The position numbers were made by a program, and so were the translations under genes. Of a stretch of 34,499 nucleotides of DNA, positions 1,585 to 34,499 are shown one piece after another; positions within the stretch are counted from its first letter, which is position 1; every line of letters begins with the position of its first letter. The DNA is from a virus. Taxonomy: Duplodnaviria; Heunggongvirae; Uroviricota; Caudoviricetes. The stretch spans positions 1 to 34,499 of the IMG/VR virus record IMGVR_UViG_648276647_000016; one strand, written 5' to 3'. The notes under the pieces are model-generated. The model was not told the origin of the DNA and ran no database searches. It was given only the letters and a program-made list of their open reading frames with translations.

Positions 1585-2280
1585 ATGACAGCTACAAAAA
1601 GCACGTCCATTTTTTCTTTCGAATCCCAAGCCGATATACGAGTAATCGTCATTAATGGTGAGCCATGGTTTATCGCTTCAGATGTTTGTCGGGCTATAGG
1701 CATAGCAAACCATCGAGATGCTGTTCGAAAACTTGATGATGATGAGAAGGGCGTCGCTTCAACCGACACCCCTGGCGGTGAGCAAGAATCGATCATCATC
1801 TCCGAGTCAGGCCTCTACACACTGATCCTCCGCTGCCGCGATGCGGTGACACCAGGCACTATCCCCTACCGCTTTCGTAAATGGGTTACAGGTGAGGTTC
1901 TTCCTCAGATCCGCCGCACCGGAAGCTACATTAAAAACTCGCTCCCGCAGGAAGAACGCATAAAGATGGTTGCCGACCAGGTTGCCAACGCCACGGCGTC
2001 AGCAGTAATGCAGGCGATGAAGATAGAGAACAAAACCTACAGCGCCCCGCTGAAGCCAGGATACCGCAGTCTGATTCACTCGCCGTCTGGTGTTCTCGGC
2101 CTGACGGAGAACTCACTGCTGATGAATCTGCTGAACCAGTTACAGGACGACGGGCACGACGTATCGGGCGCGGCGGCGGAACTGACCACCATGTTCTGCT
2201 ACATTGTCGGTGTGAGCAAATGCCTGCGTGATATCCAGACGCACGCGGAGTACATCAACGACAAGGCAGGGTTCTTCTGA
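1585..2280 (+). CDS. Antirepressor, Bro-N domain family
   Basis: 231 aa; N-terminal region (EPWFIASDVCRAIGIAN ... ESGLYTLILRCR) matches my recollection of the Bro-N/antirepressor fold. RBS AAAAGG 8 bp upstream. Confidence 0.7.
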   Translation: MTATKSTSIFSFESQADIRVIVINGEPWFIASDVCRAIGIANHRDAVRKLDDDEKGVASTDTPGGEQESIIISESGLYTLILRCRDAVTPGTIPYRFRKWVTGEVLPQIRRTGSYIKNSLPQEERIKMVADQVANATASAVMQAMKIENKTYSAPLKPGYRSLIHSPSGVLGLTENSLLMNLLNQLQDDGHDVSGAAAELTTMFCYIVGVSKCLRDIQTHAEYINDKAGFF

Positions 2281-2295
2281 CGGGCGGCGGTGGCA

Positions 2296-2326
2296 TTCGT
2301 TAAAAACAAGGCCGCGAAAGCGGCCT
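2296..2326 (-). terminator. Rho-independent terminator for the minus-strand late operon (hairpin AGGCCGC-GAAA-GCGGCCT, then TGTTTTTAA on the minus strand)
   Basis: 7-bp GC stem at 2309-2326 followed by a U-rich tract on the minus strand, directly downstream of the lipoprotein gene; convergent with the antirepressor gene. Confidence 0.6.
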
Positions 2327-2341
2327 GTGACATGTCTCGAC

Positions 2342-2755
2342 TTATAAAGATGACTGATATTTTACAACTCTGTTCATGGCATCTTTTTTCACCGAGCTGA
2401 TATCAGTTCTTATTTTGGCTTCGTCATTACTGCTTATCATGCTATTAATTTTTTGCACTGACATGCCGTTTCTTTCAGCCATTGCACATACAGCAGCATC
2501 GTATGAAGAACTCGCTGCGATGGATATCACCTTGTTACACTCAAACACAGCACCTTCAGCAATATCAGATGCCGATGAGGCTGGCTTGGTATAAGTCTTG
2601 ACGTAGTGATCAATACAACTATCCTTCGCCGTCTTGGCAAGAGAAAAATCCATTTTAACTTTGTCGCAATATGCCTTATCAACACCGTCATAAACATCAT
2701 AGGATGTCGAGCAAGCGGATATCAAAAATACCGATAACAGCAATAATTCCTTCAT
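2342..2755 (-). CDS. Lipoprotein, AT-rich moron (candidate superinfection-exclusion protein)
   Basis: 137 aa; N-terminus MKELLLLSVFLISAC has a hydrophobic core and lipobox ending in Cys. Gene is visibly AT-richer than its neighbours. Confidence 0.6.
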   Translation of the reverse strand: MKELLLLSVFLISACSTSYDVYDGVDKAYCDKVKMDFSLAKTAKDSCIDHYVKTYTKPASSASDIAEGAVFECNKVISIAASSSYDAAVCAMAERNGMSVQKINSMISSNDEAKIRTDISSVKKDAMNRVVKYQSSL

Positions 2756-2764
2756 TGTTGTTCC

Positions 2765-5239
2765 TTATTGCGGAGTGACATCCTGAGGTCGCCACCAGTA
2801 TGTCTGGTTAAACTCTTTCTTTGAACGTTGCTCCATTTTACGCAAATAGCCTGGTGAAAAATACTCCTGCATCTGGTTAAAGATCATGTGATCGAGAGCC
2901 GCCTTCAAGTACCAGAGATTCGCACCAGGCATCAAACCTTTCCCCAGCTTAACCAGATCACCACCAGTCTGCTCATTCTTCCCTTCCACAGCATTTAACG
3001 GTATGCCCTGAGCAATCTTCACTACGTCATCAACCAGACCAACTACCGGGCCAAGCATCGACGCTAGTGCGCCGCTCCCGTACCTGGTGTGGTCAGAGAA
3101 AAGAAAATCACCGTACAACCCTGCCCCACCACCTTTTAAAAATGCATTTATCCAGAATTTAACCATGTTGTCACCGGTCATTTCTTTTGGATTTCTCCCA
3201 TTAATAAGATCAGTAATCTGCATGGAAAGAGCACCAAGCATGGTTGTGCTTGCTAAAAACGTTGCTATATATGCTGCACGCCCACCAGCAGACGGCATCC
3301 CCATAGCTCTATGCCAGTGACGCATAACTACCGAGATAGGGAACGATTTAAACAGGAAAACACTTCTCGTTAATTCACCTTTCCATGTTCCACGCTGAAT
3401 ACCAGAACCGGTTATCAGTTGCTCACGTGCTCCCGGTGTAATAACAGCCATATCAACTTCTTCAGTTACGGCACCGAGCAGTTTACGCATTGCCTCAAAT
3501 TTCACGCGTTCAGGCTCACCAAGATGTTTAACTGCTGAATCAGGGATACGCATAATGCTTTCCGGTGTCAGCATCGTATTATTACCGTTCCCCCAGTCCT
3601 CCTGTTGCGCCAGCTTCCATACGCTCCAGTCTGTGTCAGTAATCCCTTTGCTTTTCAGGATACGAAAATCAGAGTCATCGAGGCTACGAAGGTCTGGCGT
3701 CCGTGACACTACTTCTCCCAGGCTTCCCATCATGGTTACGCCATAGGCGCGCTTGTGCGCATCTGACCATGCTGTAAGCCCACTGGCACGCATTACGGCC
3801 GTTGCCGCCCAACGAGACACTGACGGCCCCATATTATCCATCGCCCAGCGGTTAACGCTGCCAAGTAGAGATTCCATCGCCAGACCAGCGCGGCGCGCCC
3901 GCACAAGTTCTGTACGGTTCGTTGGGTCCATAGCTTCAAGCTGGTTGCGGAATAACTGGTTCATTGGAAGGTTGGTAACCTTCGCCGACAGATACATGGT
4001 TCCAAGATCAGAGAACGATGACAGCAACGCGGATCCGAGTCTGCTGGCAACCAGCCAGTTGCGGATATTGTCAGACCATCGCGCGATGTGCGGATTCGCT
4101 ACAGGCTGTGTCTTTCCGGAAATAAAGTTGTACAGATTCTCTGTGTTGTTCGCCAGCCGCTCGACTTTACCGGTTTTACTCGGGTTAGCTGTTGCCGTTT
4201 CTGCCTTCACCTGATCAAGAAGAGAGCGGAAAACATGATCGGGGTTTGGGCCATATGTTTCCACCAGTGCAATATCTTTACTGATACCTTCCAGGTGACC
4301 GACCATGATTTCCCATAGAGAGCGATCGCCATAAAGTTGCTGATATTGCAGATAGGAATCTGCATCTTTGAAATGTATCTGTCGTGATGCATTACCACGG
4401 TTAGCACGTGCGCCGGAAATTCGCATTCCGGTATCAGTAAGCTTATTCAGCCCACCAGTAGCGATCGTGTTATAAGCCTCTCCAAGAAATGCAGACAACT
4501 CAGCATCGTTCATCAGTTGTCCATCGGCTCGGGTATAATATTTGCGATCCAGCTTACCTATAACATCGCTAACCCACTTATCCTTTGATACCGCCCCAAC
4601 CTTTTCCATAGAATGATGTTGAGGGATCCCCCAGTTTTCGAGATAGCCAATGTCCCCACCAGCATCATTAAACCGGCGGCGCAGTAGCTCTGTCACTTCT
4701 CTCCACGCCTTAGCACCTTTTCTTGCTTTAGCATTGCCAGTATTTTGCCCCCGCATTTCATATACCAGGTCACGTACGCCCGCTTCATCTTCAAACAGAC
4801 CAAAAAAGCGAGGATCAACTGCTTCGAATGCCCCCTGCAATTGACTCAATGCATAATCACGGGTGGCTTTTGTTCTGGATTCAACAGAGAGGAAATTCGA
4901 TTTACCGTCTGCATTAAAAGCAATAGTACGGTTAAGAGCACCGAGTTTCCCATCAGCCCCTTGATAGCTATTGATAAATTTATCCAATCTCTGACGTGCG
5001 GCTATAGTGAGGGCCACACGACGTTTATTTAATGCCGCTTCTCGCTGTAATTCTTCAGATGCCAATTGTGCTGCTCGATATAGCCGCTCTGATTCGGAAA
5101 GTTGTCGCCACGACATCGGGTCATCACGAGCAATGGAGCGCATATTTCGATAAATGCGGTCTTCAATGTTCTGTATTTCTCGCGCCGTTAACGTGCGCTG
5201 CGCCGCCTGCTGGACCGCTTGTATACATTCCTGTCTCAT
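2765..5239 (-). CDS. Internal virion / ejection protein, large (T7 gp16-like by position and size)
   Basis: 824-aa ORF, last large gene of the late operon after two other internal-protein genes; assignment is by synteny and size, not a recalled sequence match. Confidence 0.5.
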   Translation of the reverse strand: MRQECIQAVQQAAQRTLTAREIQNIEDRIYRNMRSIARDDPMSWRQLSESERLYRAAQLASEELQREAALNKRRVALTIAARQRLDKFINSYQGADGKLGALNRTIAFNADGKSNFLSVESRTKATRDYALSQLQGAFEAVDPRFFGLFEDEAGVRDLVYEMRGQNTGNAKARKGAKAWREVTELLRRRFNDAGGDIGYLENWGIPQHHSMEKVGAVSKDKWVSDVIGKLDRKYYTRADGQLMNDAELSAFLGEAYNTIATGGLNKLTDTGMRISGARANRGNASRQIHFKDADSYLQYQQLYGDRSLWEIMVGHLEGISKDIALVETYGPNPDHVFRSLLDQVKAETATANPSKTGKVERLANNTENLYNFISGKTQPVANPHIARWSDNIRNWLVASRLGSALLSSFSDLGTMYLSAKVTNLPMNQLFRNQLEAMDPTNRTELVRARRAGLAMESLLGSVNRWAMDNMGPSVSRWAATAVMRASGLTAWSDAHKRAYGVTMMGSLGEVVSRTPDLRSLDDSDFRILKSKGITDTDWSVWKLAQQEDWGNGNNTMLTPESIMRIPDSAVKHLGEPERVKFEAMRKLLGAVTEEVDMAVITPGAREQLITGSGIQRGTWKGELTRSVFLFKSFPISVVMRHWHRAMGMPSAGGRAAYIATFLASTTMLGALSMQITDLINGRNPKEMTGDNMVKFWINAFLKGGGAGLYGDFLFSDHTRYGSGALASMLGPVVGLVDDVVKIAQGIPLNAVEGKNEQTGGDLVKLGKGLMPGANLWYLKAALDHMIFNQMQEYFSPGYLRKMEQRSKKEFNQTYWWRPQDVTPQ

Positions 5240-5244
5240 TTAAT

Positions 5245-7047
5245 TTAACCTCTCAAGAAACACGCCACAGCGACATCAAACAGGCTGGAATCCTGTATTG
5301 CCTGCTCACTTTCCCTGTTCGCTTCATCCAGTACTTCACGCGCACTGCGCGATTGTGGATTACCATCATCATCCAGCACGGTGATTATCATGTCAGGTGA
5401 TTCAAGCAGCGAGTCTTCAGCTATGCGCAGATCAATATCTCCTGCCTGATCTGACATCATTTTTTGTTCTGCCTGTTGCAATATTTTATCAGGCTCAAAA
5501 GGAGCTACTTCGTCTGGCGTCCTGACCTCTGCTGTTTTATAGAATGAAACAGCCTGAGCATTAAGTTCACTTTCTGCCTGCTGTCTCCGAGCCAGTTCTG
5601 CTCGAGCTTCAAAAAACTGACCGCCAGGCTCGTGCGGTGCCAACGCGTTACGGGAAAATTCCAGGCGTTCTTGTGCCTGCCGGATTCGTTGATCAATATC
5701 GCGAAGTCTGGCCTGTTTATCTGATCGAGCACGAGACAAAGCTTTACCGCTACCGGTTGGCTCTTCTGCAAGAATTTGTGCACGCTGTTCAGTGAGATTT
5801 TCAATAATTCGTTGGCTATTAGCGATTTCAGACTGGTAAACCTGTCTATCTCCACGCGGCAAAAGCTGCGCGGCCTGTTCTTCAAGCAACCGATTTTCTA
5901 TAGCGCGCGCCGTTACTCCATCATCTACAGATGACAGAGCCTCATTAACTGCCTGAGACAGCAGACTCTTGCGCCCAGGAATTTCACTGAAAGATGCAGA
6001 CTCAACAATGCTCGCAACGTCTACAGGTCTCCCCTGGCTAACATCAGACATGGCTTTTCGCAGAGCCTGAATGTGCGAATTACGCGAAAGCACGTTGATC
6101 GGAACGCCGGGAGCAATATCAATTTCAGCATGATGAGCGGCATTCGCCGCCAGTGCAGCATCGATATCAACTGGTGAAAAATTTGGTGCGCTTGTAGGCT
6201 CGCCGCGAGAGTTAATAAATCTGCCGACACCACCAAACGCCACCCCAAGAACAGCATCAATAGCAATTGCCTGTCGATCCAACACATCATACTGGTTAGC
6301 CATTTCGCTATAGCCACCATCACGAAGCGTTTTTGCAGTAAGCACACGCTGTGCCATACCGAACGCAATATTTGTACCTGCGGCATAGGCAATATCTGGC
6401 GTTGCACGTACTGCTGTTGCTGCGGCGCGTCGCACTGAACTTTCACCCGTCCGCGCAAGCTGAGCCGCCACACCTTCCGCCAGCGCACCGCCAGCACGTA
6501 ACCCGAGGCTCATTGGGATCAGTGTTCCGGCACCAGCAGTAATACCCTGCACTAATCCCGCTTCCTGCGCCGTCCTGAAATCAACACCCTGTGCTGTCAG
6601 CCGTTCAAACTCAGAAAAACCCTGTAGAGAAGTTACTGCCGCAGCACCTCCGACCGGACCACCGAGCGTTGTACCGACAACAGCCTGCCCGCCCATATCG
6701 AACAACCCATAAAGGACCTGCCCGGCGCTTCCGGTTGTCGCGGCATCAGGCGTCAGCCGCTTAACCTGCTGCTCTGCTAGTTTTCTCTGCTCAGCAATGT
6801 ATGAAACTGAAGTGTCATTGAGCGAGGTGTTTTCGTTAACAAACTGAGCAATCGGGGATACGATTTTATCCATCCCTGCCCATAGCAACTGATCTGGCTT
6901 TGCCACCAGCCCGGAGTACAAACCAGACAATGCCGCGCCTACAGCATTGTCGAAAAAACCAACATCGCTGTTAAAGCCAGCTGGATTTGATGCTGCTTCG
7001 TCAAGCTGCTGATTCTGGTTTACTGGATTAAGGCCAAAGTAACTCAT
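5245..7047 (-). CDS. Internal virion / ejection protein (gp15-like by position)
   Basis: 600-aa ORF, Gly/Ala-rich N-terminal half and coiled-coil-like C-terminal half; 4-nt overlap with the upstream gene. Confidence 0.5.
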   Translation of the reverse strand: MSYFGLNPVNQNQQLDEAASNPAGFNSDVGFFDNAVGAALSGLYSGLVAKPDQLLWAGMDKIVSPIAQFVNENTSLNDTSVSYIAEQRKLAEQQVKRLTPDAATTGSAGQVLYGLFDMGGQAVVGTTLGGPVGGAAAVTSLQGFSEFERLTAQGVDFRTAQEAGLVQGITAGAGTLIPMSLGLRAGGALAEGVAAQLARTGESSVRRAAATAVRATPDIAYAAGTNIAFGMAQRVLTAKTLRDGGYSEMANQYDVLDRQAIAIDAVLGVAFGGVGRFINSRGEPTSAPNFSPVDIDAALAANAAHHAEIDIAPGVPINVLSRNSHIQALRKAMSDVSQGRPVDVASIVESASFSEIPGRKSLLSQAVNEALSSVDDGVTARAIENRLLEEQAAQLLPRGDRQVYQSEIANSQRIIENLTEQRAQILAEEPTGSGKALSRARSDKQARLRDIDQRIRQAQERLEFSRNALAPHEPGGQFFEARAELARRQQAESELNAQAVSFYKTAEVRTPDEVAPFEPDKILQQAEQKMMSDQAGDIDLRIAEDSLLESPDMIITVLDDDGNPQSRSAREVLDEANRESEQAIQDSSLFDVAVACFLRG

Positions 7048-19189: not shown

Positions 19190-19266
19190 GTGGCATTAGC
19201 TCAGCTGGACAGAGCAACCGCCTTCTAAGCGGTTGGTCGCAGGTTCGAATCCTGCATGCCACGCCA
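19190..19266 (+). tRNA. tRNA-Arg (anticodon UCU)
   Basis: Hand-folded cloverleaf: acceptor GTGGCAT/ATGCCAC, D-stem GCTC/GAGC, anticodon stem ACCGC/GCGGT with loop CUUCUAA, T-arm GCAGG-TTCGAAT-CCTGC, discriminator G and encoded CCA. Confidence 0.85.
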
Positions 19267-22054: not shown

Positions 22055-22288
22055 TCAAAGTCCATCAAATTCATCGTAAAAACTCTCGTCAAGATACCCT
22101 TCCCATTTACCGCGAATGAAAATTACATCCTCGCCGCAAGGGTGCTGACTGTCGATAACTATATCCCTCCTGGCGCAACCATACTTATGCATGAGAAATT
22201 TAACCTCTTTCGGAAAATTTGCTGAGTTATCTCTCATATCTTCAAGGTCGTAGCGTATTTTTGGCATAACACCTTCGTGACATGTCAC
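22055..22288 (-). CDS. Hypothetical protein
   Basis: 77-aa ORF; its ATG lies inside the palindrome GTGACATGTCAC (22277-22288). Confidence 0.4.
   Translation of the reverse strand: MTCHEGVMPKIRYDLEDMRDNSANFPKEVKFLMHKYGCARRDIVIDSQHPCGEDVIFIRGKWEGYLDESFYDEFDGL
22277..22288. repeat. Palindrome GTGACATGTCAC (copy 2, flanks tCGTGACATGTCACAc)
   Basis: Exact copy overlapping the start codon of the 22055-22288 gene. Confidence 0.6.
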
Positions 22289-22626
22289 ACTATTAATTTC
22301 GTTTCATGCCAGCCTTTGGTCACCCAGCATTGCGAGTCACCATTACACGGGCATGAATTCACAGGAACTCTCTCGCCGCACTTACCGCAACGTTTTCTGC
22401 TGATCGATTTTATACGCCCGTGCACGCGTGCATCATCCTGGCGGATCAGTAACGCTATATACTCACCAAATTCGTAAGGCGCACGCCCGGGGCGACGCGT
22501 GGCACAGTTACGCTCCAGCATTTCAATTTCCTGAGCATCAAGCACAATCTCCAGCTTACGTACACCGGATTCAGCTTGTCTGGCTCTCTGAGCGGCTTTG
22601 CGCTCTGCTGCTGATTTAGCCATCAA
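22285..22626 (-). CDS. Hypothetical zinc-ribbon protein (C-x2-C-x9-C-x-C)
   Basis: 113-aa ORF with basic N-terminus and CGKCGERVPVNSCPC motif; possible regulator (speculative). Confidence 0.4.
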   Translation of the reverse strand: MMAKSAAERKAAQRARQAESGVRKLEIVLDAQEIEMLERNCATRRPGRAPYEFGEYIALLIRQDDARVHGRIKSISRKRCGKCGERVPVNSCPCNGDSQCWVTKGWHETKLIV

Positions 22627-22858
22627 TATTCACCTTTATCGCGAACACCTTTACCGGTTTATCACCGAAGTGCGGATGTGTGATTGTCTTGATTTCATAT
22701 CCGTCATACGGAACATCAATTCTGCGACTGAAATCGTCGCGCTTCGGATATCCCTTTGTGATAATCAGGCGGCCATTATGAGACGACAATAACTCAGTCC
22801 GCCTAGCGCCGATTATTCTGGCCGGTTTTGTAACCTGAGTGTCATTTACATGATCCAA
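22616..22858 (-). CDS. Hypothetical protein, possibly a 5'-truncated remnant at the IS21-family junction
   Basis: 80-aa ORF whose start lies within about 12 bp of the IstA start, so its N-terminal codons probably fall in the IS left end. Confidence 0.3.
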   Translation of the reverse strand: MDHVNDTQVTKPARIIGARRTELLSSHNGRLIITKGYPKRDDFSRRIDVPYDGYEIKTITHPHFGDKPVKVFAIKVNIDG

Positions 22859-22869
22859 CAGGAAATGGC

Positions 22870-24369
22870 GTGACGCTCAATACTTCTCAGGTCAGTTACT
22901 ATATGACTCAGCGTAAGAAAGGTATAACTCAGCATATCTCGGCCATGAAGGCTGGTATCTCAGTCCGTTCTGGTCGTCGGATCGAAAAAGGAGAGTGGGC
23001 AAAAAACAGTGTTCGGCACTGGCGCACACGCAAAGATCCTCTGGAAGCTGTGTGGGACAGCATGCTTGTTCCTCTGTTGAAAGAGAGGCCGGCTCTGACA
23101 CCAACAACTCTGCTGGAGATGCTACAGGATAAATATCCCGGCCAGTATCCCAACAGCCTTCGAAGAACAATGCAACGGCGAGTTCGCGAATGGAAGCTAC
23201 AGTATGGTGCAGAGCAGGAGGTCATGTTCCGCCAGCGACATCAGCCCGGTCTGCGAGGTCTGTCGGACTTTACTGAACTGAAAGGTGTAGTTGTCACCAT
23301 CGCCGGTAAGTTGTTGGCGCATAAGTTGTATCACTTCCGTCTGGAATGGAGCCACTGGAGCTGGATGCGGGTTGTGCTGGGTGGTGAGAGCTTCTCTGCT
23401 CTGGCTGAAGGTCTGCAGGAAGCCCTCGGACAACTGGGCGGAGTGCCGGTAGAACATAAAACGGACAGCCTGAGGGCAGCATGGAAACAACAGGGCGAAG
23501 ATGGACGCCGCGAGCTGACTGAGCGTTATGCTGCTCTCTGTCAGCACTACGGAATGCAGGGCGTACACAATAATGCTGGTCGGGGCCACGAAAATGGCTC
23601 GGTTGAAAGTGCCCACGGACATCTGAAAAGGCGTATCTGTCAGGCGTTGATACTGCGGGGCAGTAACGACTTCAGCACCATAGAAGAATATCAGGCCTTC
23701 ATCACTCAGCAGGTTATGCGGCACAACCGTAACAATCAGGATCTGGTCAAGGAAGAACGTCTTCATCTGAAACCGCTGCCGCTTCGTCGCAGTGCTGACT
23801 ATGATGAGCTGACTGTGAGGGTTAGCCGCAGCAGTACCATCAATGTGAAGCACGTCGTCTACAGCGTACCTTCCCGGCTTGTAGGTCAACTGTTACGGGT
23901 CCGGTTATGGGACGATCGTCTGAGCTGTTATGTTGGCAGCAGCGAGGTCATGAGCTGCCCTCGTGTCAGACCAGAAAAAGGGAAGACGCGGGCCCGTCGT
24001 ATCGACTTCCGACATGTGATCGACAGTCTGGCAAAAAAGCCCGGTGCGTTCTGCCATGCAACGCTGAGAAATGACATCCTGCCAGACGATGAATGGCGGA
24101 GACTGTGGCGTCGCTTATGTAATCATCTGGAACCCGACATGGCAGGAAGGCTGATGGTACATGCCCTGAAACTGGCTGCAGGATACGACGATATCTCAGT
24201 CGTGGCAAAAGGTATGGAGCAGATGCTGAATACCCCGGGAAACGTGGATCTGCACCGGCTGATGCGCTTCCTGGGTATAAAGGAAAAGGCGTTGCCGGTA
24301 GTCAATGTGAAACAGCATAACCTGAGCAGTTATGAGCAACTACTGCGTGGCAAGGGAGGTTCGCAGTGA
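22870..24369 (+). CDS. istA: IS21-family transposase IstA
   Basis: 499 aa with N-terminal HTH-like region and central DDE-type domain; GTG start with AGGAAA Shine-Dalgarno (alternative ATG at 22903); stop overlaps the istB start. Confidence 0.7.
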   Translation: MTLNTSQVSYYMTQRKKGITQHISAMKAGISVRSGRRIEKGEWAKNSVRHWRTRKDPLEAVWDSMLVPLLKERPALTPTTLLEMLQDKYPGQYPNSLRRTMQRRVREWKLQYGAEQEVMFRQRHQPGLRGLSDFTELKGVVVTIAGKLLAHKLYHFRLEWSHWSWMRVVLGGESFSALAEGLQEALGQLGGVPVEHKTDSLRAAWKQQGEDGRRELTERYAALCQHYGMQGVHNNAGRGHENGSVESAHGHLKRRICQALILRGSNDFSTIEEYQAFITQQVMRHNRNNQDLVKEERLHLKPLPLRRSADYDELTVRVSRSSTINVKHVVYSVPSRLVGQLLRVRLWDDRLSCYVGSSEVMSCPRVRPEKGKTRARRIDFRHVIDSLAKKPGAFCHATLRNDILPDDEWRRLWRRLCNHLEPDMAGRLMVHALKLAAGYDDISVVAKGMEQMLNTPGNVDLHRLMRFLGIKEKALPVVNVKQHNLSSYEQLLRGKGGSQ

Positions 24370-24689
24370 GCAATATCCATCACCTTGAACGCAGCCTGCG
24401 TAAACTACGCCTGACACGAGTTGGAGCTGAATGGCACGCTCTGGAAAAACGAGCGCTGGCAGAAGGCTGGACACCATCGCGCTATCTTCTGACGCTATGC
24501 AATGAAGAACTCCTGTGGCGCGAGAGTGAAAAACTGCGTCGTTATAAAAAGGAGGCCCGGTTGCCAGTTGCCAAAACGCTAAGCGAATACGACTTCAGTC
24601 AGGTGCCGGAACTGAATGGAGCTCAGTTCCGGCAACTCTGTGAAACGACAGACTGGGTTGATGCTGGAGAAAACGTTCTGCTGTTCGGG
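24366..24689 (+). pseudogene. istB: IS21-family helper ATPase IstB, N-terminal fragment
   Basis: MSNIHHLERSLRKLRL...DWVDAGENVLLFG matches the IstB N-terminus up to the Walker A position, where the expected GPSGVGKTH is replaced by unrelated sequence. Confidence 0.65.
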
Positions 24690-24847
24690 GCCAGCGCATT
24701 AGCACGCACCAGTTGCACTTCCAGTTGCGTTGCCAAATCGCTGATCAGCTTTGCCACACTGCGCATATCAACGGCACCACATTCAGCTTTCAGTTCCGAA
24801 GCCATCTCATGCCCGGCGGCAACTAACCCTTTGATATTACTTTCCAT
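24690..24847 (-). pseudogene. N-terminal fragment (~52 codons) of a phage early-right gene, truncated at the IS21-family junction
   Basis: MESNIKGLVAAGHEMASELKAECGAVDMRSVAKLISDLATQLEVQLVRANA reads as protein-like; beyond ~24690 the frame is antisense to istB. Confidence 0.4.
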
Positions 24848-28322: not shown

Positions 28323-28350
28323 TAAGCCGCCTCATGGCGGCTTTTTTATT
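28323..28350 (+). terminator. Rho-independent terminator (AAGCCGCC-TCAT-GGCGGCTT + TTTTTATT)
   Basis: Perfect 8-bp stem plus T-tract 20 bp after the repressor stop. Confidence 0.7.
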
Positions 28351-28360
28351 GCCCATGCTA

Positions 28361-28438
28361 TTACCTAATGGGTAATTTTTTTAACTCATATCTATTGACA
28401 TCAAACCAAATACGCATAATTATTACCTCAACGGTAAC
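28361..28438 (+). promoter_or_regulatory. PL-like promoter (TTGACA 28395-28400, -10 near 28417-28423) bracketed by operators TTACCTAATGGGTAA (28361-28375) and TTACCTCAACGGTAA (28424-28438)
   Basis: Consensus -35 hexamer, AT-rich -10, and the downstream operator lies over the predicted transcription start. Confidence 0.6.
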
Positions 28439-29729: not shown

Positions 29730-30607
29730 GCAATGATATCGCAATCACATCACAACCAGGCGCAACTGTAGGCACTGCTGCGGCAATATTCAGCCCCGAG
29801 GGCATGAATCAACTGGTGCGTTTCGCGGAGTTGATGTCACAAAGCAAAGCGACTGTACCGAAACATCTTGAAGGCAAACCTGCCGATTGTCTGGCGGTGA
29901 CCATGCAGGCGGCACAGTGGGGAATGAACCCTTTCGCCGTGGCGCAGAAAACGCATGTGGTAAACGGAACGTTAGGCTACGAAGCACAGTTGGTAAACGC
30001 GGTCGTATCCTCTTCCAGCCTGCTGGCGACACGCCTGAATTATCGCTGGAGCGGTGACTGGTCGAATGTTAACGGCAAAACAGATAAATCACCGAATCTG
30101 ACGGTAACTGTGTCAGCAGTTCTTAAAGGAGAAGCAGAACCCCGTGAGCTTACCATCAGTATGGCGCAAGCCGGAGTGCGTAACTCTCCATTGTGGGAAC
30201 AGGATCCGCGCCAGCAACTTGCCTATCTTTGCACGAAACGATGGGCTCGCCTGCACGCTCCTGATGTACTTCTCGGTGTTTACACCCCAGACGAATTACA
30301 GGAAACGGCACCGCGCGTTGAGCGAGACATTACTCCGCAAACGACCACTGCTGCGGGAATGAACAGTCTGATCAACGCTAAACCAGCGAAAAAGCCTGAT
30401 GAGCAAACGCGTAAAGAGGATAGCCGTGATCCAGAAGAAATGCTGATGGCCTTTACCAGCGCAGCGATGAATTACAGCACTGTCTCCGAACTGGATAAGG
30501 CTTACAAATACATTGCACAAAAACTTTCAGATGATGACGAACTGCTGGCAAAAGCCACCGACGTTTACAGCGTTCGTCGGGAAGAATTAAACGAAACATC
30601 TATATAA
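29726..30607 (+). CDS. Single-strand annealing protein, RecT/Redbeta family
   Basis: 293 aa; segments GMNPFAVAQKTHVVNGTLGYEAQL and ERDITP resemble my recollection of lambda Bet; paired with an exonuclease. Confidence 0.6.
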   Translation: MSNDIAITSQPGATVGTAAAIFSPEGMNQLVRFAELMSQSKATVPKHLEGKPADCLAVTMQAAQWGMNPFAVAQKTHVVNGTLGYEAQLVNAVVSSSSLLATRLNYRWSGDWSNVNGKTDKSPNLTVTVSAVLKGEAEPRELTISMAQAGVRNSPLWEQDPRQQLAYLCTKRWARLHAPDVLLGVYTPDELQETAPRVERDITPQTTTAAGMNSLINAKPAKKPDEQTRKEDSRDPEEMLMAFTSAAMNYSTVSELDKAYKYIAQKLSDDDELLAKATDVYSVRREELNETSI

Positions 30608-30656
30608 CCACCACCGCGGCGCCACGCGCGCCGCACTGCAACCAAGAGAGGTATTT

Positions 30657-30905
30657 ATGAAAGGTGCATTAGGTAAGAAGGAACTCCTGGCGGTGGTGCC
30701 ACTGTCATGGAGCACTATCGACCGTATGGAGCGCGCAGGGGAATTTCCTAAACGCTGGTATATCACTGACAAACGCTGCGCATGGAACCGTGACGAAGTT
30801 GAGCGTTGGCTTGATGAACGTCAGGCAGCAAGCCCGGCAGAGTTCCAGGGTAAAAAGCCTCCTGTTCAGCAACGTGTATATCGTCCTGTGAGCAACGCTG
30901 CATGA
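30657..30905 (+). CDS. AlpA-family DNA-binding protein (putative excisionase / transcriptional regulator)
   Basis: 82 aa; LLAVVPLSWSTIDRMERAGEFPKRWYITDKRCAWNRDEVERWL fits the AlpA/Xis pattern; strong RBS AGAGAGG. Confidence 0.65.
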   Translation: MKGALGKKELLAVVPLSWSTIDRMERAGEFPKRWYITDKRCAWNRDEVERWLDERQAASPAEFQGKKPPVQQRVYRPVSNAA

Positions 30906-31014
30906 GTGCGCTGCTAAGGCACTGGAGCAAATGGTCAGGATGGTACTTATTCCTGGCCTCTGTTTCAGCATGGCTTTATCTGCTGGCATTAATTTTCAGA
31001 GAGGGTTGGATTAA

Positions 31015-31314
31015 GTGAGAAAGTTAAGCCGACTTGAAAAATATCACATGAACAAGGTTTCAATGCGCCGTCCTTCAAAGGTTATCGCCGTTACTCCTGC
31101 GGCGATAGAGATCGAAAAACGCGCGATTGAAAGAGAGAAAAAAGGGCAATTCCGCATTGCCGCTCACCTTTGGCTTCAGTGTATGGATGTTGCTTCTGGT
31201 GATGTTGAACGTGCAAGGATCGCGGTTCGCAGGGACCAATGTATCACAAAAGGTAACGGCCTTCGCCGTGGCGACTATAGCGGTATAGGATGTTGCGGGG
31301 TGGTTTATGAATAA
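31015..31314 (+). CDS. PerC-like transcriptional regulator (tentative)
   Basis: 99 aa; GQFRIAAHLWLQCMD...ERARIAVRRDQC resembles the PerC/Pch G-W-R-AA-WL core as I remember it; start uncertain (GTG 31015 or internal ATG). Confidence 0.4.
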   Translation: MRKLSRLEKYHMNKVSMRRPSKVIAVTPAAIEIEKRAIEREKKGQFRIAAHLWLQCMDVASGDVERARIAVRRDQCITKGNGLRRGDYSGIGCCGVVYE

Positions 31315-32410
31315 ACAAAACAATAATATAAAAGGTAATATCATGAGCAAGGTAGGCGATTATTTCTTTGAATTTCCCGCATCACGAGGAACGCAGGGAA
31401 GCACTGTAATACTTATGATGACAGTACCAGCAAGAGCACTATCGAGAGTATTGGCAACCGACAATACGGGAAGTACCCTTGAACGTTCTCAACGTGAAAT
31501 TAATCCAACTAGGGTAAAAAAGTTTTATCAATATTTAGTCAACGCTTACGAGAAAAAGGAACCATTTATTGTTCCACCATTGGTCGGAAATTGTAACTCA
31601 GAAATAGAGTTCCATGAGATTGGAAATACTAATGTCGGTTTAGCTAGATTTCCTATGGATGCAGAAATAAAATTATTTGATGGACAGCATCGTGCTGCAG
31701 GATTAGCTGAGTTCTGCCGTAATTATGGTGAAACAATTATGATTCCTCTTATGCTTACGCATAACCTTCCTTTGAAGGCGCGTCAGCAGTTCTTTTCTGA
31801 CATTAATAATAATGTTTCAAAACCATCTGCAGCAATTAATATGGCGTATGACGGACGAAACGATGTTGCCCAAGAAATGGTGTCTTTCCTGTCGCAACAT
31901 GACACTTTTGCAGAAGTCACTGACTTCGAGCACAACGTTGTTCCGTCAAAGTCAAACATGTGGGTGAGTTTCAAAGCATTAAGTGATTCAACATCAAAAT
32001 TTTGTATTCATAATGGAAAAAAACTAGAAATTGGTAACATCGAGTCAGTATGGGAATCATGGTTATGTCTTACACAACTAGAAGCAATTCGCCATGGTAC
32101 AAAGCAATCAGAATACAAAAGAGAATATATCCAGTTTCATGCAGTGATGATTAACGCTTTTGGTTATGCTGTTCAGCAAATGATGGTTAATCACTCAATA
32201 AAAGAAATAATTTCAATGATTGAAACATTATGTGCAAATACTGACTTCGCAGAAAGAGAGAATTTTTTCCTAATGGATAATTGGGTTGGGATCTGCACGA
32301 AAGCAAGCCAGGAAAAACTATCAGTTATTGCCAATGTAGCAGCACAGAAAGCGGCAGCAAACAGGCTGATACAAGCCTTTACCAAAGGAAGTCTGGGAGC
32401 AGAGCAATGA
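31307..32410 (+). CDS. DGQHR-domain protein (DndB-like, ParB/Srx-fold)
   Basis: Contains the exact DGQHR signature (KLFDGQHRAAGLAEF); ~355-367 aa like DndB; gene is strongly AT-rich; alternative start at the ATG at 31343. Confidence 0.6.
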   Translation: MNKQNNNIKGNIMSKVGDYFFEFPASRGTQGSTVILMMTVPARALSRVLATDNTGSTLERSQREINPTRVKKFYQYLVNAYEKKEPFIVPPLVGNCNSEIEFHEIGNTNVGLARFPMDAEIKLFDGQHRAAGLAEFCRNYGETIMIPLMLTHNLPLKARQQFFSDINNNVSKPSAAINMAYDGRNDVAQEMVSFLSQHDTFAEVTDFEHNVVPSKSNMWVSFKALSDSTSKFCIHNGKKLEIGNIESVWESWLCLTQLEAIRHGTKQSEYKREYIQFHAVMINAFGYAVQQMMVNHSIKEIISMIETLCANTDFAERENFFLMDNWVGICTKASQEKLSVIANVAAQKAAANRLIQAFTKGSLGAEQ

Positions 32411-33054
32411 AAAAATACACGCTAATATATGCAGATCCACCCTGGGTATACCGGGACAAAGCCGCAGATGGTAATCGCGGCGCTGGTTTTAAATATCCGG
32501 TTATGAGTGTGCTGGATATCTGCCGCCTTCCTGTGTGGGATTTGTCCGATGAAAACTGTCTGTTGGCCATGTGGTGGGTGCCAACACAACCACTCGAAGC
32601 ACTAAAAGTTGTTGAAGCCTGGGGATTCCGTCTGATGACCATGAAGGGCTTCACGTGGATAAAATGTGGTAGTCGACAACCAGATAAACTAGTTATGGGT
32701 ATGGGACACATGACTCGCGCCAATAGTGAAGATTGCCTGTTTGCGGTAAAGGGAAAACTACCTCCGCGCATTAATGCAGGTATCGTTCAGTCATTTACCG
32801 CACCGCGGCTTGAGCATTCAAGAAAACCAGATGTCGTTCGTGAAAAACTTGTGCAATTGTTAGGCGATGTTTCTCGCATTGAACTGTTCGCCCGCCAGTC
32901 GTCTCATGGCTTCGATGTTTGGGGTAATCAGTGCGAAGACCCGGCAGTGCAACTACACCCTGGATACGCGTTGGATATTGGCGGATTAACAAATGCATTC
33001 AGCAATGCTCCGCTGTCACCAACAGACAACCAGGGGCGGGAGCGTGCAGCATGA
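32407..33054 (+). CDS. MT-A70-family DNA N6-adenine methyltransferase
   Basis: Starts MKKYTLIYADPPW (DPPW catalytic motif) with further conserved stretch HSRKP; start overlaps the DGQHR stop (ATGA). Track start 32281 is an upstream extension. Confidence 0.7.
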   Translation: MKKYTLIYADPPWVYRDKAADGNRGAGFKYPVMSVLDICRLPVWDLSDENCLLAMWWVPTQPLEALKVVEAWGFRLMTMKGFTWIKCGSRQPDKLVMGMGHMTRANSEDCLFAVKGKLPPRINAGIVQSFTAPRLEHSRKPDVVREKLVQLLGDVSRIELFARQSSHGFDVWGNQCEDPAVQLHPGYALDIGGLTNAFSNAPLSPTDNQGRERAA

Positions 33055-33245
33055 ACAGGGCATCACCAGCAGATTTAAGGAAATGCCTTGAAACTGCAAA
33101 CATGCTTGCACACAGCGGGATCAGGTTTGTTCCAATTCCCGCTGTCACTGATGCTGAATTTGCAACACTGTCAGCAATATTCGCAGATAAAATTGAATCA
33201 CTGGCAGCAGAAGCCGAGATGGAAGAAAATCAGCAGAATAATTAA
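33051..33245 (+). CDS. Small conserved hypothetical protein (64 aa)
   Basis: ATG overlapping the methyltransferase stop (ATGA); last gene before the convergent integrase. Confidence 0.4.
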   Translation: MNRASPADLRKCLETANMLAHSGIRFVPIPAVTDAEFATLSAIFADKIESLAAEAEMEENQQNN

Positions 33246-33251
33246 ACGTTA

Positions 33252-34499
33252 TTACCCCGCCATCCATTTCTCAAACTTCGACGGGGAGAACGGAATCAGA
33301 TCCGTATGCTCCCCGTCAATCCAGGAATCAATCATATCGGCCCACTGCTGCAACATCCAGGCGCGCTGTCTGGCGTATTCCGCTTTGTTATATACGGCGC
33401 GCACACCTTTCTGCTCATGTGCCAGAGCCTTTTCAATCCAGTCTGAAGGATAACCAGCCTCATGCAATAACGTACTGGCTGTACGGCGCATATCGTGTAC
33501 GGTGAAGTCCTGAATATGCTCACCATTTTCATTTATTATTTTCACCGTTCTGTCGATCAGAGAGTTCAGCGCGGCATTAGATAATGGCTTCCGGAAGTTG
33601 TAACGACCAGGAACCAGATATTCACTTCCACCAGCGCACATCTGCAGCCCGACCAATATATCCTGTGCCTGTTTAGGCAGGTAAATAACGTGCGCCCGGC
33701 TTCCCTTCATGCGGTCTGAAGGAATTGTCCATGTCCATTTTTTAAAATCTATTTCATCCCACGTTGCGTTGGTGAATTCGCCTTTACGAACCATAGTGAT
33801 AAGCACCAGCTTTAAAGCCATTTTCATAGTGCCCATAGCACCAATGGCATCCAGCGTGCGGAAAAACAGGCCAATTTCTTCTGGTGTCAGTGTTCGCTCT
33901 CTTGGTTTAAATATGGCGATAGACGAAGGTTTAATGTCAGCCGCAGGATTAAACAAACCATGACCACGGTCATTGGCGTGACGGTATACGCTGCTGATGA
34001 TCTCCCTTGCCTGTACTGCTGTTGCCCGACCACCGCGTTCGACAATCCGGTCACACAAATCACGAACCATCGATGTGGTAATTTCAGTCATCATTTTGTT
34101 GCCAAGAACCGGAAGTATGTCACGGTCGATCACCGCCTGCTTCATTGCGCGGGTACTGTCAGCCAGGATGACATGTTTCATATAACTGTCGGTATGTACC
34201 GCAAACGTCTCGGCACCACGAATCTTTTTGATACCGTCACGTTTAGCCGCAGCCGGTGACTGGCCTGCCTTAAGCAGCTTCTTTGCAGCAATCAGTTCTT
34301 CTCGCGCTTCTGCCAGGCTGATACCGTCACGCCCATACTGCCCGATTACCAGTGTTTCGCGGCGACCGTTGATACGGTAGTCATAGCGAAACGAGACCGT
34401 GCCTGACGTAAGCACAGCTACATACAGCCCGTCACGATCGGAGACCTTGTACAGTTTGTCCTGCGGCTTGAGGTTTTTTAATTTTGTATCGGTAAGCAC
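33252..34499 (-). CDS. int: Tyrosine recombinase / phage integrase (P4-like), 5' end at or just beyond the window edge
   Basis: 415 aa; N-terminus LTDTKLKNLKPQDKLYKVSDRDGLYV is typical of P4-type integrases; C-terminal catalytic region (HDMRRTASTLLHEAG...YNKAEY). First codon in window is GTG at the very edge. Confidence 0.8.
   Translation of the reverse strand: MLTDTKLKNLKPQDKLYKVSDRDGLYVAVLTSGTVSFRYDYRINGRRETLVIGQYGRDGISLAEAREELIAAKKLLKAGQSPAAAKRDGIKKIRGAETFAVHTDSYMKHVILADSTRAMKQAVIDRDILPVLGNKMMTEITTSMVRDLCDRIVERGGRATAVQAREIISSVYRHANDRGHGLFNPAADIKPSSIAIFKPRERTLTPEEIGLFFRTLDAIGAMGTMKMALKLVLITMVRKGEFTNATWDEIDFKKWTWTIPSDRMKGSRAHVIYLPKQAQDILVGLQMCAGGSEYLVPGRYNFRKPLSNAALNSLIDRTVKIINENGEHIQDFTVHDMRRTASTLLHEAGYPSDWIEKALAHEQKGVRAVYNKAEYARQRAWMLQQWADMIDSWIDGEHTDLIPFSPSKFEKWMAG

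Follow-up and report, generated by a model that had tools for sequence, protein, structure and literature searches.

An AT-rich DGQHR-domain gene inserted at the start codon of an orphan MT-A70 methyltransferase gene in a phiV10/epsilon15-like Escherichia coli prophage

We analyzed a run of three overlapping genes beside the integrase gene of IMG/VR virus record IMGVR_UViG_648276647_000016, a 34,499-nucleotide stretch of caudoviricete DNA that we refer to as the window. The first open reading frame (ORF), at 31307-32410 on the plus strand, encodes 367 amino acids (aa) and, by the ORF listing and a coordinate check, carries the signature FDGQHR at residue 125 (nucleotides 31679-31693). Its TGA (32408-32410) overlaps the ATG at 32407 of a gene for a 215-aa MT-A70 family protein (32407-33054, plus strand), which is read in a different frame, and the TGA of that gene (33052-33054) overlaps the ATG at 33051 of a 64-aa DUF1382 ORF; both junctions of the run are ATGA. 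The DGQHR gene has a GC content of 38.7% (31% at third codon positions, GC3), against 48-51% for the genes of PerC, the methyltransferase, RecT and the integrase and for the whole window; the short DUF1382 ORF stands at 43%. A sequence-only reading of this DNA had described the same coupled genes next to the integrase, and its coordinates proved right. It had also raised the idea of a dedicated device in which a DndB-like sensor works with the methyltransferase. Our comparisons point instead to a routine mosaic junction, with a backbone orphan methyltransferase downstream of optional cargo.

Judged by its sequence relatives, the window is a phiV10/epsilon15-like E. coli prophage (Uetakevirus, epsilon15-like podoviruses) at guaA. 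The region is 98-99.7% identical to guaA-adjacent prophages in complete E. coli genomes; in the closest genome (NZ_OX030728) the prophage abuts guaA and is 96-99% identical over the aligned blocks. Minus the DGQHR gene, its identity to Escherichia phage phiV10 and the Uetakevirus relatives of that phage is 98%. In phiV10, perC, methyltransferase, DUF1382 and int follow one another without interruption, perC ending 8 nt beyond the methyltransferase ATG. The window keeps this backbone on both sides of the DGQHR gene. Upstream is the gene for a PerC-family transcriptional activator (31015-31314, plus strand; Pfam PerC E=5.7e-07, phrog_868 E=4.7e-61), whose product is 96% identical to phiV10 gp34 and whose stop lies 8 nt past the ATG at 31307. 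Downstream of the methyltransferase are the small DUF1382 protein (33051-33245, plus strand; PF07131 E=1.3e-30, phrog_292) and a P4-type tyrosine integrase with Arm-DNA-bind_3, Phage_int_M and Phage_integrase domains (33252-34499, minus strand), which is convergent with the early-left operon.

Against phiV10, the DGQHR gene is a clean insertion. Window 30200-31314 aligned by blastn with positions 2100-3215 of the phiV10 locus, and window 32410-34499 with 3214-5303. At base level, homology to phiV10 runs through TTTATGA and then breaks at the left junction. The junctions are exact: 1,095 bp (31315-32409), with ATGA on either side, have been placed precisely at the methyltransferase start codon. 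As these alignments show, the insertion left the methyltransferase otherwise intact, with a new ATGA-coupled start; the new ATG comes from the right end of the cassette, and the protein begins MKKYT in the window and MTKKYT in phiV10. Apart from ATGA, we found no transposon-like ends, no direct or inverted flanking repeats and no target duplication around the cassette. That the gene is AT-richer than its neighbors and was acquired separately, as the sequence-only reading had suggested, is borne out by the composition and the insertion together; the AT-richness, which is particular to this allele, fits a recent acquisition from an AT-richer source.

The insertion also accounts for the apparent start of the DGQHR ORF. 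By the phiV10 alignment, ATG 31307 is the old methyltransferase start, ancestrally coupled to perC, and it now opens the DGQHR frame 12 codons early with an in-frame leader, MNKQNNNIKGNI (31307-31342, plus strand). The native start is most likely ATG 31343 (MSKVG...) rather than 31307, because it is the one used by PGAP in a relative, by the PHROG 7901 profile and by most aligned homologues; the 12-codon leader is missing from the PHROG profile, the PGAP models and most homologues. The predicted product of 31343-32410 (plus strand) is a 355-aa DGQHR-domain protein with an N-terminal ParB/Srx-fold domain and a variable helical C-terminal domain. Part of the leader (31311-31342, ...AATAAACAAAACAATAATATAAAAGG...) weakly resembles the 3' end of a DUF1317 gene in two other viral loci (...ATAAATAATAAACAGGAGG..., positions 3940-4000 of L007/L008). 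The source of the cassette may have been a DUF1317-DGQHR context from which it was excised, although this resemblance is weak.

Searches with profile hidden Markov models placed the DGQHR protein in the family that its motif had suggested to the sequence-only reading. It scored 192.4 bits against TIGR03187 ('DGQHR domain', cutoff 58.85) and matched Pfam DndB (PF14072) with E=3.5e-46 and 158.3 bits (cutoff 29.1) over profile positions 1-312 of 338; the PADLOC DndB model matches it as well. The N-terminal domain has the ParB/Srx fold, by structural similarity to ParB-like or sulfiredoxin structures. The 367-aa ORF contains RSQRE at 60, FDGQHR at 125 and FFSDINNN at 162. The corresponding QR, DGQHR and FxxxN motifs, of which DGQHR is the equivalent of the phosphate-binding Box II of the ParB/Srx fold, were invariant in 16 of 16 homologues, and the DGQHR pentapeptide is kept even in distant Vibrio and Pseudoalteromonas relatives. 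Because the motifs are invariant, the nucleotide-binding pocket of the fold is under selection. A bacterial DndB-like protein binds both ATP and GTP (bioRxiv 10.1101/2025.10.10.680097).

By these comparisons the protein is homologous to DndB, yet it is not DndB proper. It reached 110 bits on the DndB equivalog model (TIGR03233), for which the cutoff is 328, and it is 24% identical to the DndB of a dndBCD operon; genuine DndBs from such operons score 405-411 bits on Pfam DndB, against its 158. No homologues of DndC, DndD or PAPS reductase were found in the window by tblastn (all E>0.2), and the annotation of the related NZ_OX030728 prophage shows no dnd, dpd, ssp or restriction genes, in agreement with the earlier remark that such partners are missing. 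As for DpdB, the NCBIfam scan returned only DGQHR/DndB-type models, besides the lack of annotated dpd genes in the related prophage, and no dedicated DpdA search was made on the window. Neither a nuclease or other effector domain nor a helix-turn-helix (HTH) was detected in the DGQHR protein.

The two halves of the protein differ in pace: the N-terminal domain is 85-98% conserved and the C-terminal domain 38-62%, so the latter evolves much faster across the family. The window allele is a mosaic produced by recombination. Over the N-terminal ~210 aa it shares 80-98% identity with Salmonella/Cronobacter/Hafnia-type alleles (P0003/P0009/P0028), whereas for the final ~90 aa the nearest allele (78-88%) is the P0020 type, an AT-rich allele of E. 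coli lambda-like prophages. We considered AT-richness as a trait of the family and rejected it: only the window allele (38.7% GC) and the P0020 type (43%) are clearly AT-rich, and other enterobacterial alleles have 47-56% GC. More distant homologues occur in Vibrio phages. Six of them share 31-37% identity with the window protein and carry an extra 130-185 aa at the C-terminus (490-539 aa in total). In virulent 83-kb siphophages of Vibrio crassostreae the DGQHR gene sits between a PadR-like gene and a gene for a 325-aa protein without a Pfam match, upstream of rdgC. Carriage by virulent phages means that the family is not confined to temperate elements.

The downstream gene is a resident of the phage backbone. 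Its product carries IYADPPW, with DPPW encoded at 32434-32445, and matches the MT-A70 family model over its full length (PF05063, E=1.3e-21, profile positions 1-172 of 172); it also matches PADLOC MTase_II (E=4.6e-76) and phrog_359. The nearest solved relatives are the Tetrahymena MTA1-type MT-A70 proteins. It belongs with the orphan MT-A70 enzymes of the phiV10 gp33/epsilon15 gp29 type: it is 98% identical to gp33, occupies the same slot before DUF1382 and int, and differs only in the first codons. The neighboring genes (perC, DGQHR, DUF1382 and int) do not suggest a Type II restriction-modification (RM) system, no endonuclease is annotated in relatives, and the PADLOC match at this gene is to the methyltransferase model only. 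The gene is therefore a predicted orphan N6-adenine DNA methyltransferase, as the sequence-only reading had it, and not the fragment of a Type II system that was its alternative; no restriction gene lies nearby. Comparison of phiV10/epsilon15-like prophages shows this gene always between perC and int, with an ancestral coupling to perC.

We then asked whether the two genes hold together elsewhere. Related phages differ in what lies between perC and the methyltransferase gene: phiV10 has nothing there, epsilon15 has a 35-aa ORF, Tyrion has DUF1317 and a winged-HTH gene, SPN1S has DUF1317 and a 76%-identical DGQHR gene, and the window has the DGQHR gene alone. This methyltransferase DNA is present in 539 of 5,426 complete E. 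coli genomes. Only 21 of the 539 also carry the DGQHR gene; the other 518 (96%), and in addition 17 phage records, have the methyltransferase DNA without it. The DGQHR family for its part is large: at 90% identity it forms at least 229 clusters in Enterobacterales, and at 50% identity (E<=1e-30) it forms 78. Its commonest context in E. coli is a lambda-like prophage with the order bet, exo, DUF1317, DGQHR, zf-dskA_traR, with no methyltransferase inside the ~4 kb examined on each side. A Klebsiella type (HTH_ParB, DGQHR, dATP/dGTP pyrophosphohydrolase) and Salmonella types in which DGQHR is followed by Ead/Ea22-like genes likewise have no methyltransferase within ~4 kb.

In a sample of 80 IMG/VR loci that carry the DGQHR family, a DNA methyltransferase gene was nevertheless frequent: in 43 it lay directly downstream or one small HTH gene away. 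These methyltransferases belong to three MT-A70 lineages, PF05869 Dam, PF01555 N6_N4 and PF02086 D12. Distant DGQHR lineages (31-42% identity, from Vibrio and other hosts) lie 1-4 genes from C5, Dam, MT-A70 or D12 enzymes. As a control we collected 80 IMG/VR loci anchored on the neighboring lambdoid exo gene, 74 of which could be scored. A methyltransferase was found 0.1-2.2 kb downstream of exo-DUF1317/c34 in ~70 of the 74, while DGQHR was present in only 4 of the 80. The methyltransferase came straight after DUF1317/c34 in 45 of the scorable loci, and in 25 unrelated cargo lay between. In the lambdoid slot after exo-c19-DUF1317/c34, PF05869 Dam, MT-A70, N6_N4 and D12 enzymes swap freely, often with a C5 methylase behind. 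Among the E. coli genomes the Dam-type methyltransferase occurs alone in ten and with DGQHR in one.

On the strength of the exo-anchored control and the within-genus comparison, we rejected the methyltransferase enrichment as evidence for a module in enterobacterial phages. The observation that DGQHR homologues often sit beside methyltransferases holds; a conserved pairing, which the sequence-only reading had expected a neighborhood survey to reveal, does not survive the controls. With the methyltransferase constant in the absence of DGQHR and DGQHR frequent in the absence of a methyltransferase, the same comparisons speak against its dedicated sensor-methyltransferase device. In these phages, as far as gene order tells, the methyltransferase slot is near-constant and the position just upstream is a cargo hotspot of which DGQHR is an occasional occupant. 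By this measure neither gene needs the other. Nor is the ATGA overlap a sign of partnership, since it is generic for the family: the end of the DGQHR gene overlaps the start codon of the next gene, be it MT-A70, D12, N6_N4 or Dam. The case is a warning about guilt by association, as an adjacency to five methyltransferase families looked strong until the control on a neighboring backbone gene was made.

A different neighbor fared better. In lambdoid prophages, DGQHR is consistently followed by a gene for a small HTH protein of one of two distantly related kinds: cluster 10, of 154 aa, or cluster 33, of 173 aa, which gives weak sigma-70 r4 and GcrA-like matches. The two match each other by BLASTP at E=9e-06. 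Genes of these clusters occurred in 26 of the 80 DGQHR loci and, within the exo-anchored set, in all 4 DGQHR-bearing loci but none of the other ~76. DGQHR and the small HTH gene seem to form a genuine cassette of two genes, as DGQHR and the methyltransferase do not; the window lacks this cassette.

The family also extends to plasmids: searched by tblastn, PLSDB yielded 1,056 plasmid records with a homologue, of which 879 are conjugative. The IncL/M homologue is 427 aa long (43% identity, E=1e-84) and lies in the order RadC/JAB, HTH_3, DGQHR, DUF4942, Hha, DUF1380, antirestriction (PF03230), ssb, mobC, mobA-traI. We take the mobC-mobA gap to hold the origin of transfer, oriT, by analogy with the layout of the F plasmid, which would put the IncL/M DGQHR gene in the leading region, the part that enters the recipient first. 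The Enterobacter MOBF plasmid pECL_B carries a comparable island, in which RadC is accompanied by an N6 methyltransferase (N6_Mtase, ~3 kb downstream). Early-entry locations are found for the IncL/M homologue, in the pECL_B context and in phage early-left contexts. Leading regions are enriched in anti-defense genes, orphan methyltransferases and single-stranded DNA-binding proteins (PMC11541004); the supplement of that paper holds a DGQHR family of only 7 members. In canonical pOXA-48-type IncL plasmids (63,589 bp) the DGQHR homologue is split by IS1B into two fragments (e.g. NZ_CP077782.1, 30197-31929); it is intact, at 427 aa, in other IncL/M plasmids.

The window offers some indication of when the two genes would be expressed. 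Consensus scans gave a candidate terminator after the repressor-like HTH gene (28324-28343, plus strand) and a candidate sigma-70 promoter that is the probable start of the early-left operon (28395-28423, plus strand), with no promoter-like sigma-70 site between 28613 and 33245, cassette included. The epsilon15 record has repressor operators annotated at the position equivalent to the candidate promoter region. DGQHR and the methyltransferase are therefore likely transcribed together with the recombination genes when the phage infects or is induced, and the placement in a 'prophage early operon' by the sequence-only reading is plausible to the extent that the scans and the epsilon15 annotation carry it.

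Both genes already have public annotations ('DGQHR domain-containing protein' and 'MT-A70 family methyltransferase') and are not new in themselves; what is new is how the two relate and how wide a range of mobile-element contexts the DGQHR clade occupies. We think it probable, with some reserve, that the locus combines a backbone orphan methyltransferase with an independent cargo gene from an uncharacterized early-entry clade of ParB/Srx-fold proteins. The repressor-controlled early-left operon would supply both proteins upon infection or induction, and not in the quiet lysogen. The MT-A70 enzyme would methylate phage DNA and so blunt host restriction, by analogy with phage and plasmid orphan methyltransferases (PMC11541004). 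The DGQHR protein is most likely a nucleoside triphosphate (NTP)-gated, ParB/Srx-fold DNA-binding factor that would help its element to establish, through counter-defense or control of DNA transactions. It would not need the methyltransferase for this, and its fast-evolving C-terminal domain would carry the target specificity. This role is the least certain step of the scheme, together with the view that the clade is optional cargo of first-expressed regions, namely the exo/recT-to-int segment of temperate phages and the leading region of conjugative plasmids, where its neighbors include orphan methyltransferase, antirestriction and ssb genes.

A bolder proposal would make the phage and plasmid DGQHR clade (phrog_7901 and the IncL/M relatives) a new class of mobile-element establishment factor: derived from DndB, NTP-gated, made within minutes of entry, often with an HTH partner, and neutralizing defense or reprogramming DNA transactions independently of methyltransferases. 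We offer it tentatively, as possible rather than likely. The family is in any case well conserved, uncharacterized and DndB-derived. It turns up both in the early operons of temperate phages and, on clinically important IncL/M (pOXA-48-type) plasmids, in the leading region; by virtue of this double occurrence it is a concrete candidate for the list of early-entry and anti-defense factors.

A parallel for such a role is HerB (YfjB) of the F-plasmid leading region. This orphan ParB-like protein binds CTP and, once the plasmid has entered, reprograms its host (bioRxiv 10.64898/2026.07.07.736705). Like the DGQHR clade, HerB is an orphan ParB-like NTP-binding protein encoded in a first-entering region, among ssb, antirestriction, methylase and psiB genes, and homologues of the window protein lie in the corresponding part of IncL/M plasmids. 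The resemblance goes no further than fold and location: BLASTP against F-plasmid YfjB detected no sequence similarity (E=0.55), HerB has an HTH and a dedicated dimerization module where no HTH was detected in the window protein, and host reprogramming has been demonstrated for HerB only.

Several observations count against an independent cargo gene with an early-entry function. The C-terminal helical domain gave no confident structural match and no detectable HEPN signature, and our literature search found no paper and no experiment on the phage/plasmid DGQHR clade. The timing of expression comes from consensus scans and the annotation of a relative. The split by IS1 in pOXA-48 shows the gene to be dispensable for the spread of that plasmid, and any benefit in establishment must then be conditional. 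As to independence from methyltransferases, these enzymes lie 1-4 genes from the distant DGQHR lineages and the control set covers lambdoid backbones alone; moreover, ParB-fold domains have repeatedly been fused to phage DNA methyltransferases, which fits a partnership (bioRxiv 10.1101/2025.10.10.680097).

Such a partnership is the alternative that fares best. The DGQHR protein would be the separate counterpart of the ParB domain in the fusions, loading onto DNA in an NTP-dependent manner and recruiting or stimulating the downstream methyltransferase for fast methylation of phage DNA. The fusions, which are common in phages and prophages, join a ParB-CTPase fold to an N6_N4 methyltransferase or a Methyltransf_23 domain, with MT-A70 fusions in archaea; like the window, they amount to a ParB-fold NTP-binding module and a methyltransferase co-encoded in a prophage, with a suspected anti-defense role (bioRxiv 10.1101/2025.10.10.680097). 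ParB-Tls loci also carry methyltransferases (PMC4738411). The 43 viral loci with a methyltransferase of one of five families nearby, the DUF4942 protein encoded after the plasmid homologue and the N6_Mtase of pECL_B point the same way. The window, however, holds no fusion: it has two ORFs whose ATGA overlap and pairing were created by an insertion, each gene is widespread alone, and the ParB-fold part is of the DGQHR/DndB clade and not of the canonical GERR type. Methyltransferases are near-universal at the slot without DGQHR in the control, the genus and the E. coli genomes, and DGQHR is common with none inside the ~4 kb examined. One specific protein interface is unlikely to suit five unrelated methyltransferase folds, and the consistent partner of DGQHR in lambdoid phages is the small HTH protein. 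The controls thus leave a partnership unlikely, with the distant lineages as the place where it may apply.

Independent early-entry cargo must also be weighed against a role of the DGQHR protein alone in prophage defense or superinfection exclusion, as a DUF262/GmrS-type NTPase with the ParB/Srx fold whose task is to sense invading DNA. The AT-rich, horizontally acquired allele, the PADLOC DndB match and a fast-evolving C-terminal domain suited to an arms race are all in keeping with this, as is the relationship to DUF262/DGQQR domains found in type IV restriction proteins and in proteins associated with BREX (PMC4619093, PMC3632139). The GmrS/DUF262 domains of type IV restriction enzymes, BrxU and SspE share with the DGQHR protein the ParB/Srx fold, the QR and FxxxN motifs and the sister motif DGQQR/DGQHR (PMC4619093). 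These proteins have a fused or adjacent nuclease (HNH/DUF1524), however, and in the window protein no nuclease or effector domain was detected. We found no promoter of its own for the gene, in an operon that is annotated as repressor-controlled in relatives, and a leading-region place beside antirestriction genes points to a benefit for the incoming element and not for the host. We regard defense by the DGQHR protein alone as quite improbable.

Interference with phosphorothioation-based systems is still less probable. Here the DGQHR protein would mimic the repressor of dndBCDE, or bind phosphorothioate consensus sites, and so disarm Dnd or Ssp. DndB is an ATP-dependent repressor of the dnd operon (PMC4507180, as summarized in bioRxiv 10.1101/2025.10.10.680097), which counts in favor, together with the homology along the Pfam DndB model and the 24% identity to a DndB from a dndBCD operon. 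DndB of the dndBCDE systems of Salmonella enterica Cerro 87 and Streptomyces lividans is like the window protein in its DGQHR/ParB-like N-domain, its helical C-terminal domain and its QR, DGQHR and FxxxN motifs. The window protein differs from it in falling below the equivalog cutoff, in having no dndCDE neighbors and in lying in a phage early operon; the idea is speculative, and we have no evidence tying hosts of the family to dnd carriage. Parts of a phosphorothioation module do occur on putative phage contigs, unlike in the window: the human fecal 'Bacteriophage sp.' contigs L099 and L100 (MT838014 and MT836308) carry a genuine DndB gene followed by a PAPS-reductase (DndC-like) gene, in L099 with an additional SMC-like (DndD-like) gene after it.

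Weakest of all is an RM-like pair, the minimal modification-dependent defense of the sequence-only reading, in which DGQHR would act on unmethylated DNA and MT-A70 would protect its own: the tight overlap and co-orientation, the lack of a classical restriction enzyme beside the orphan methyltransferase and the ParB-like nuclease domains known in some RM contexts all suit it, but an effector that needs protection could not persist alone, and DGQHR without an adjacent methyltransferase is its commonest context, the methyltransferase lacks DGQHR in 96% of its carrier E. coli genomes, and the methyltransferase family, hence specificity, swaps next to a conserved DGQHR protein in which no nuclease domain was detected. 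Because the supposed effector is so common without a neighboring methyltransferase, an RM-like or toxin-protection relation is effectively excluded, and the distribution data largely refute the proposal.

Elsewhere in the window, a tRNA-Arg gene (anticodon TCT, 19190-19266), also annotated in the closest E. coli genome, lies between the portal-side structural and the terminase-side genes. Further mosaic joints are apparent: 1-2760, at the left end, where the relative has its Ant and YafO-toxin genes; 22075-24749, close to the terminase; and 30000-30200, some 200 bp within the 3' portion of recT. Against the closest complete-genome prophage or phiV10, these stretches give a poor alignment or none.

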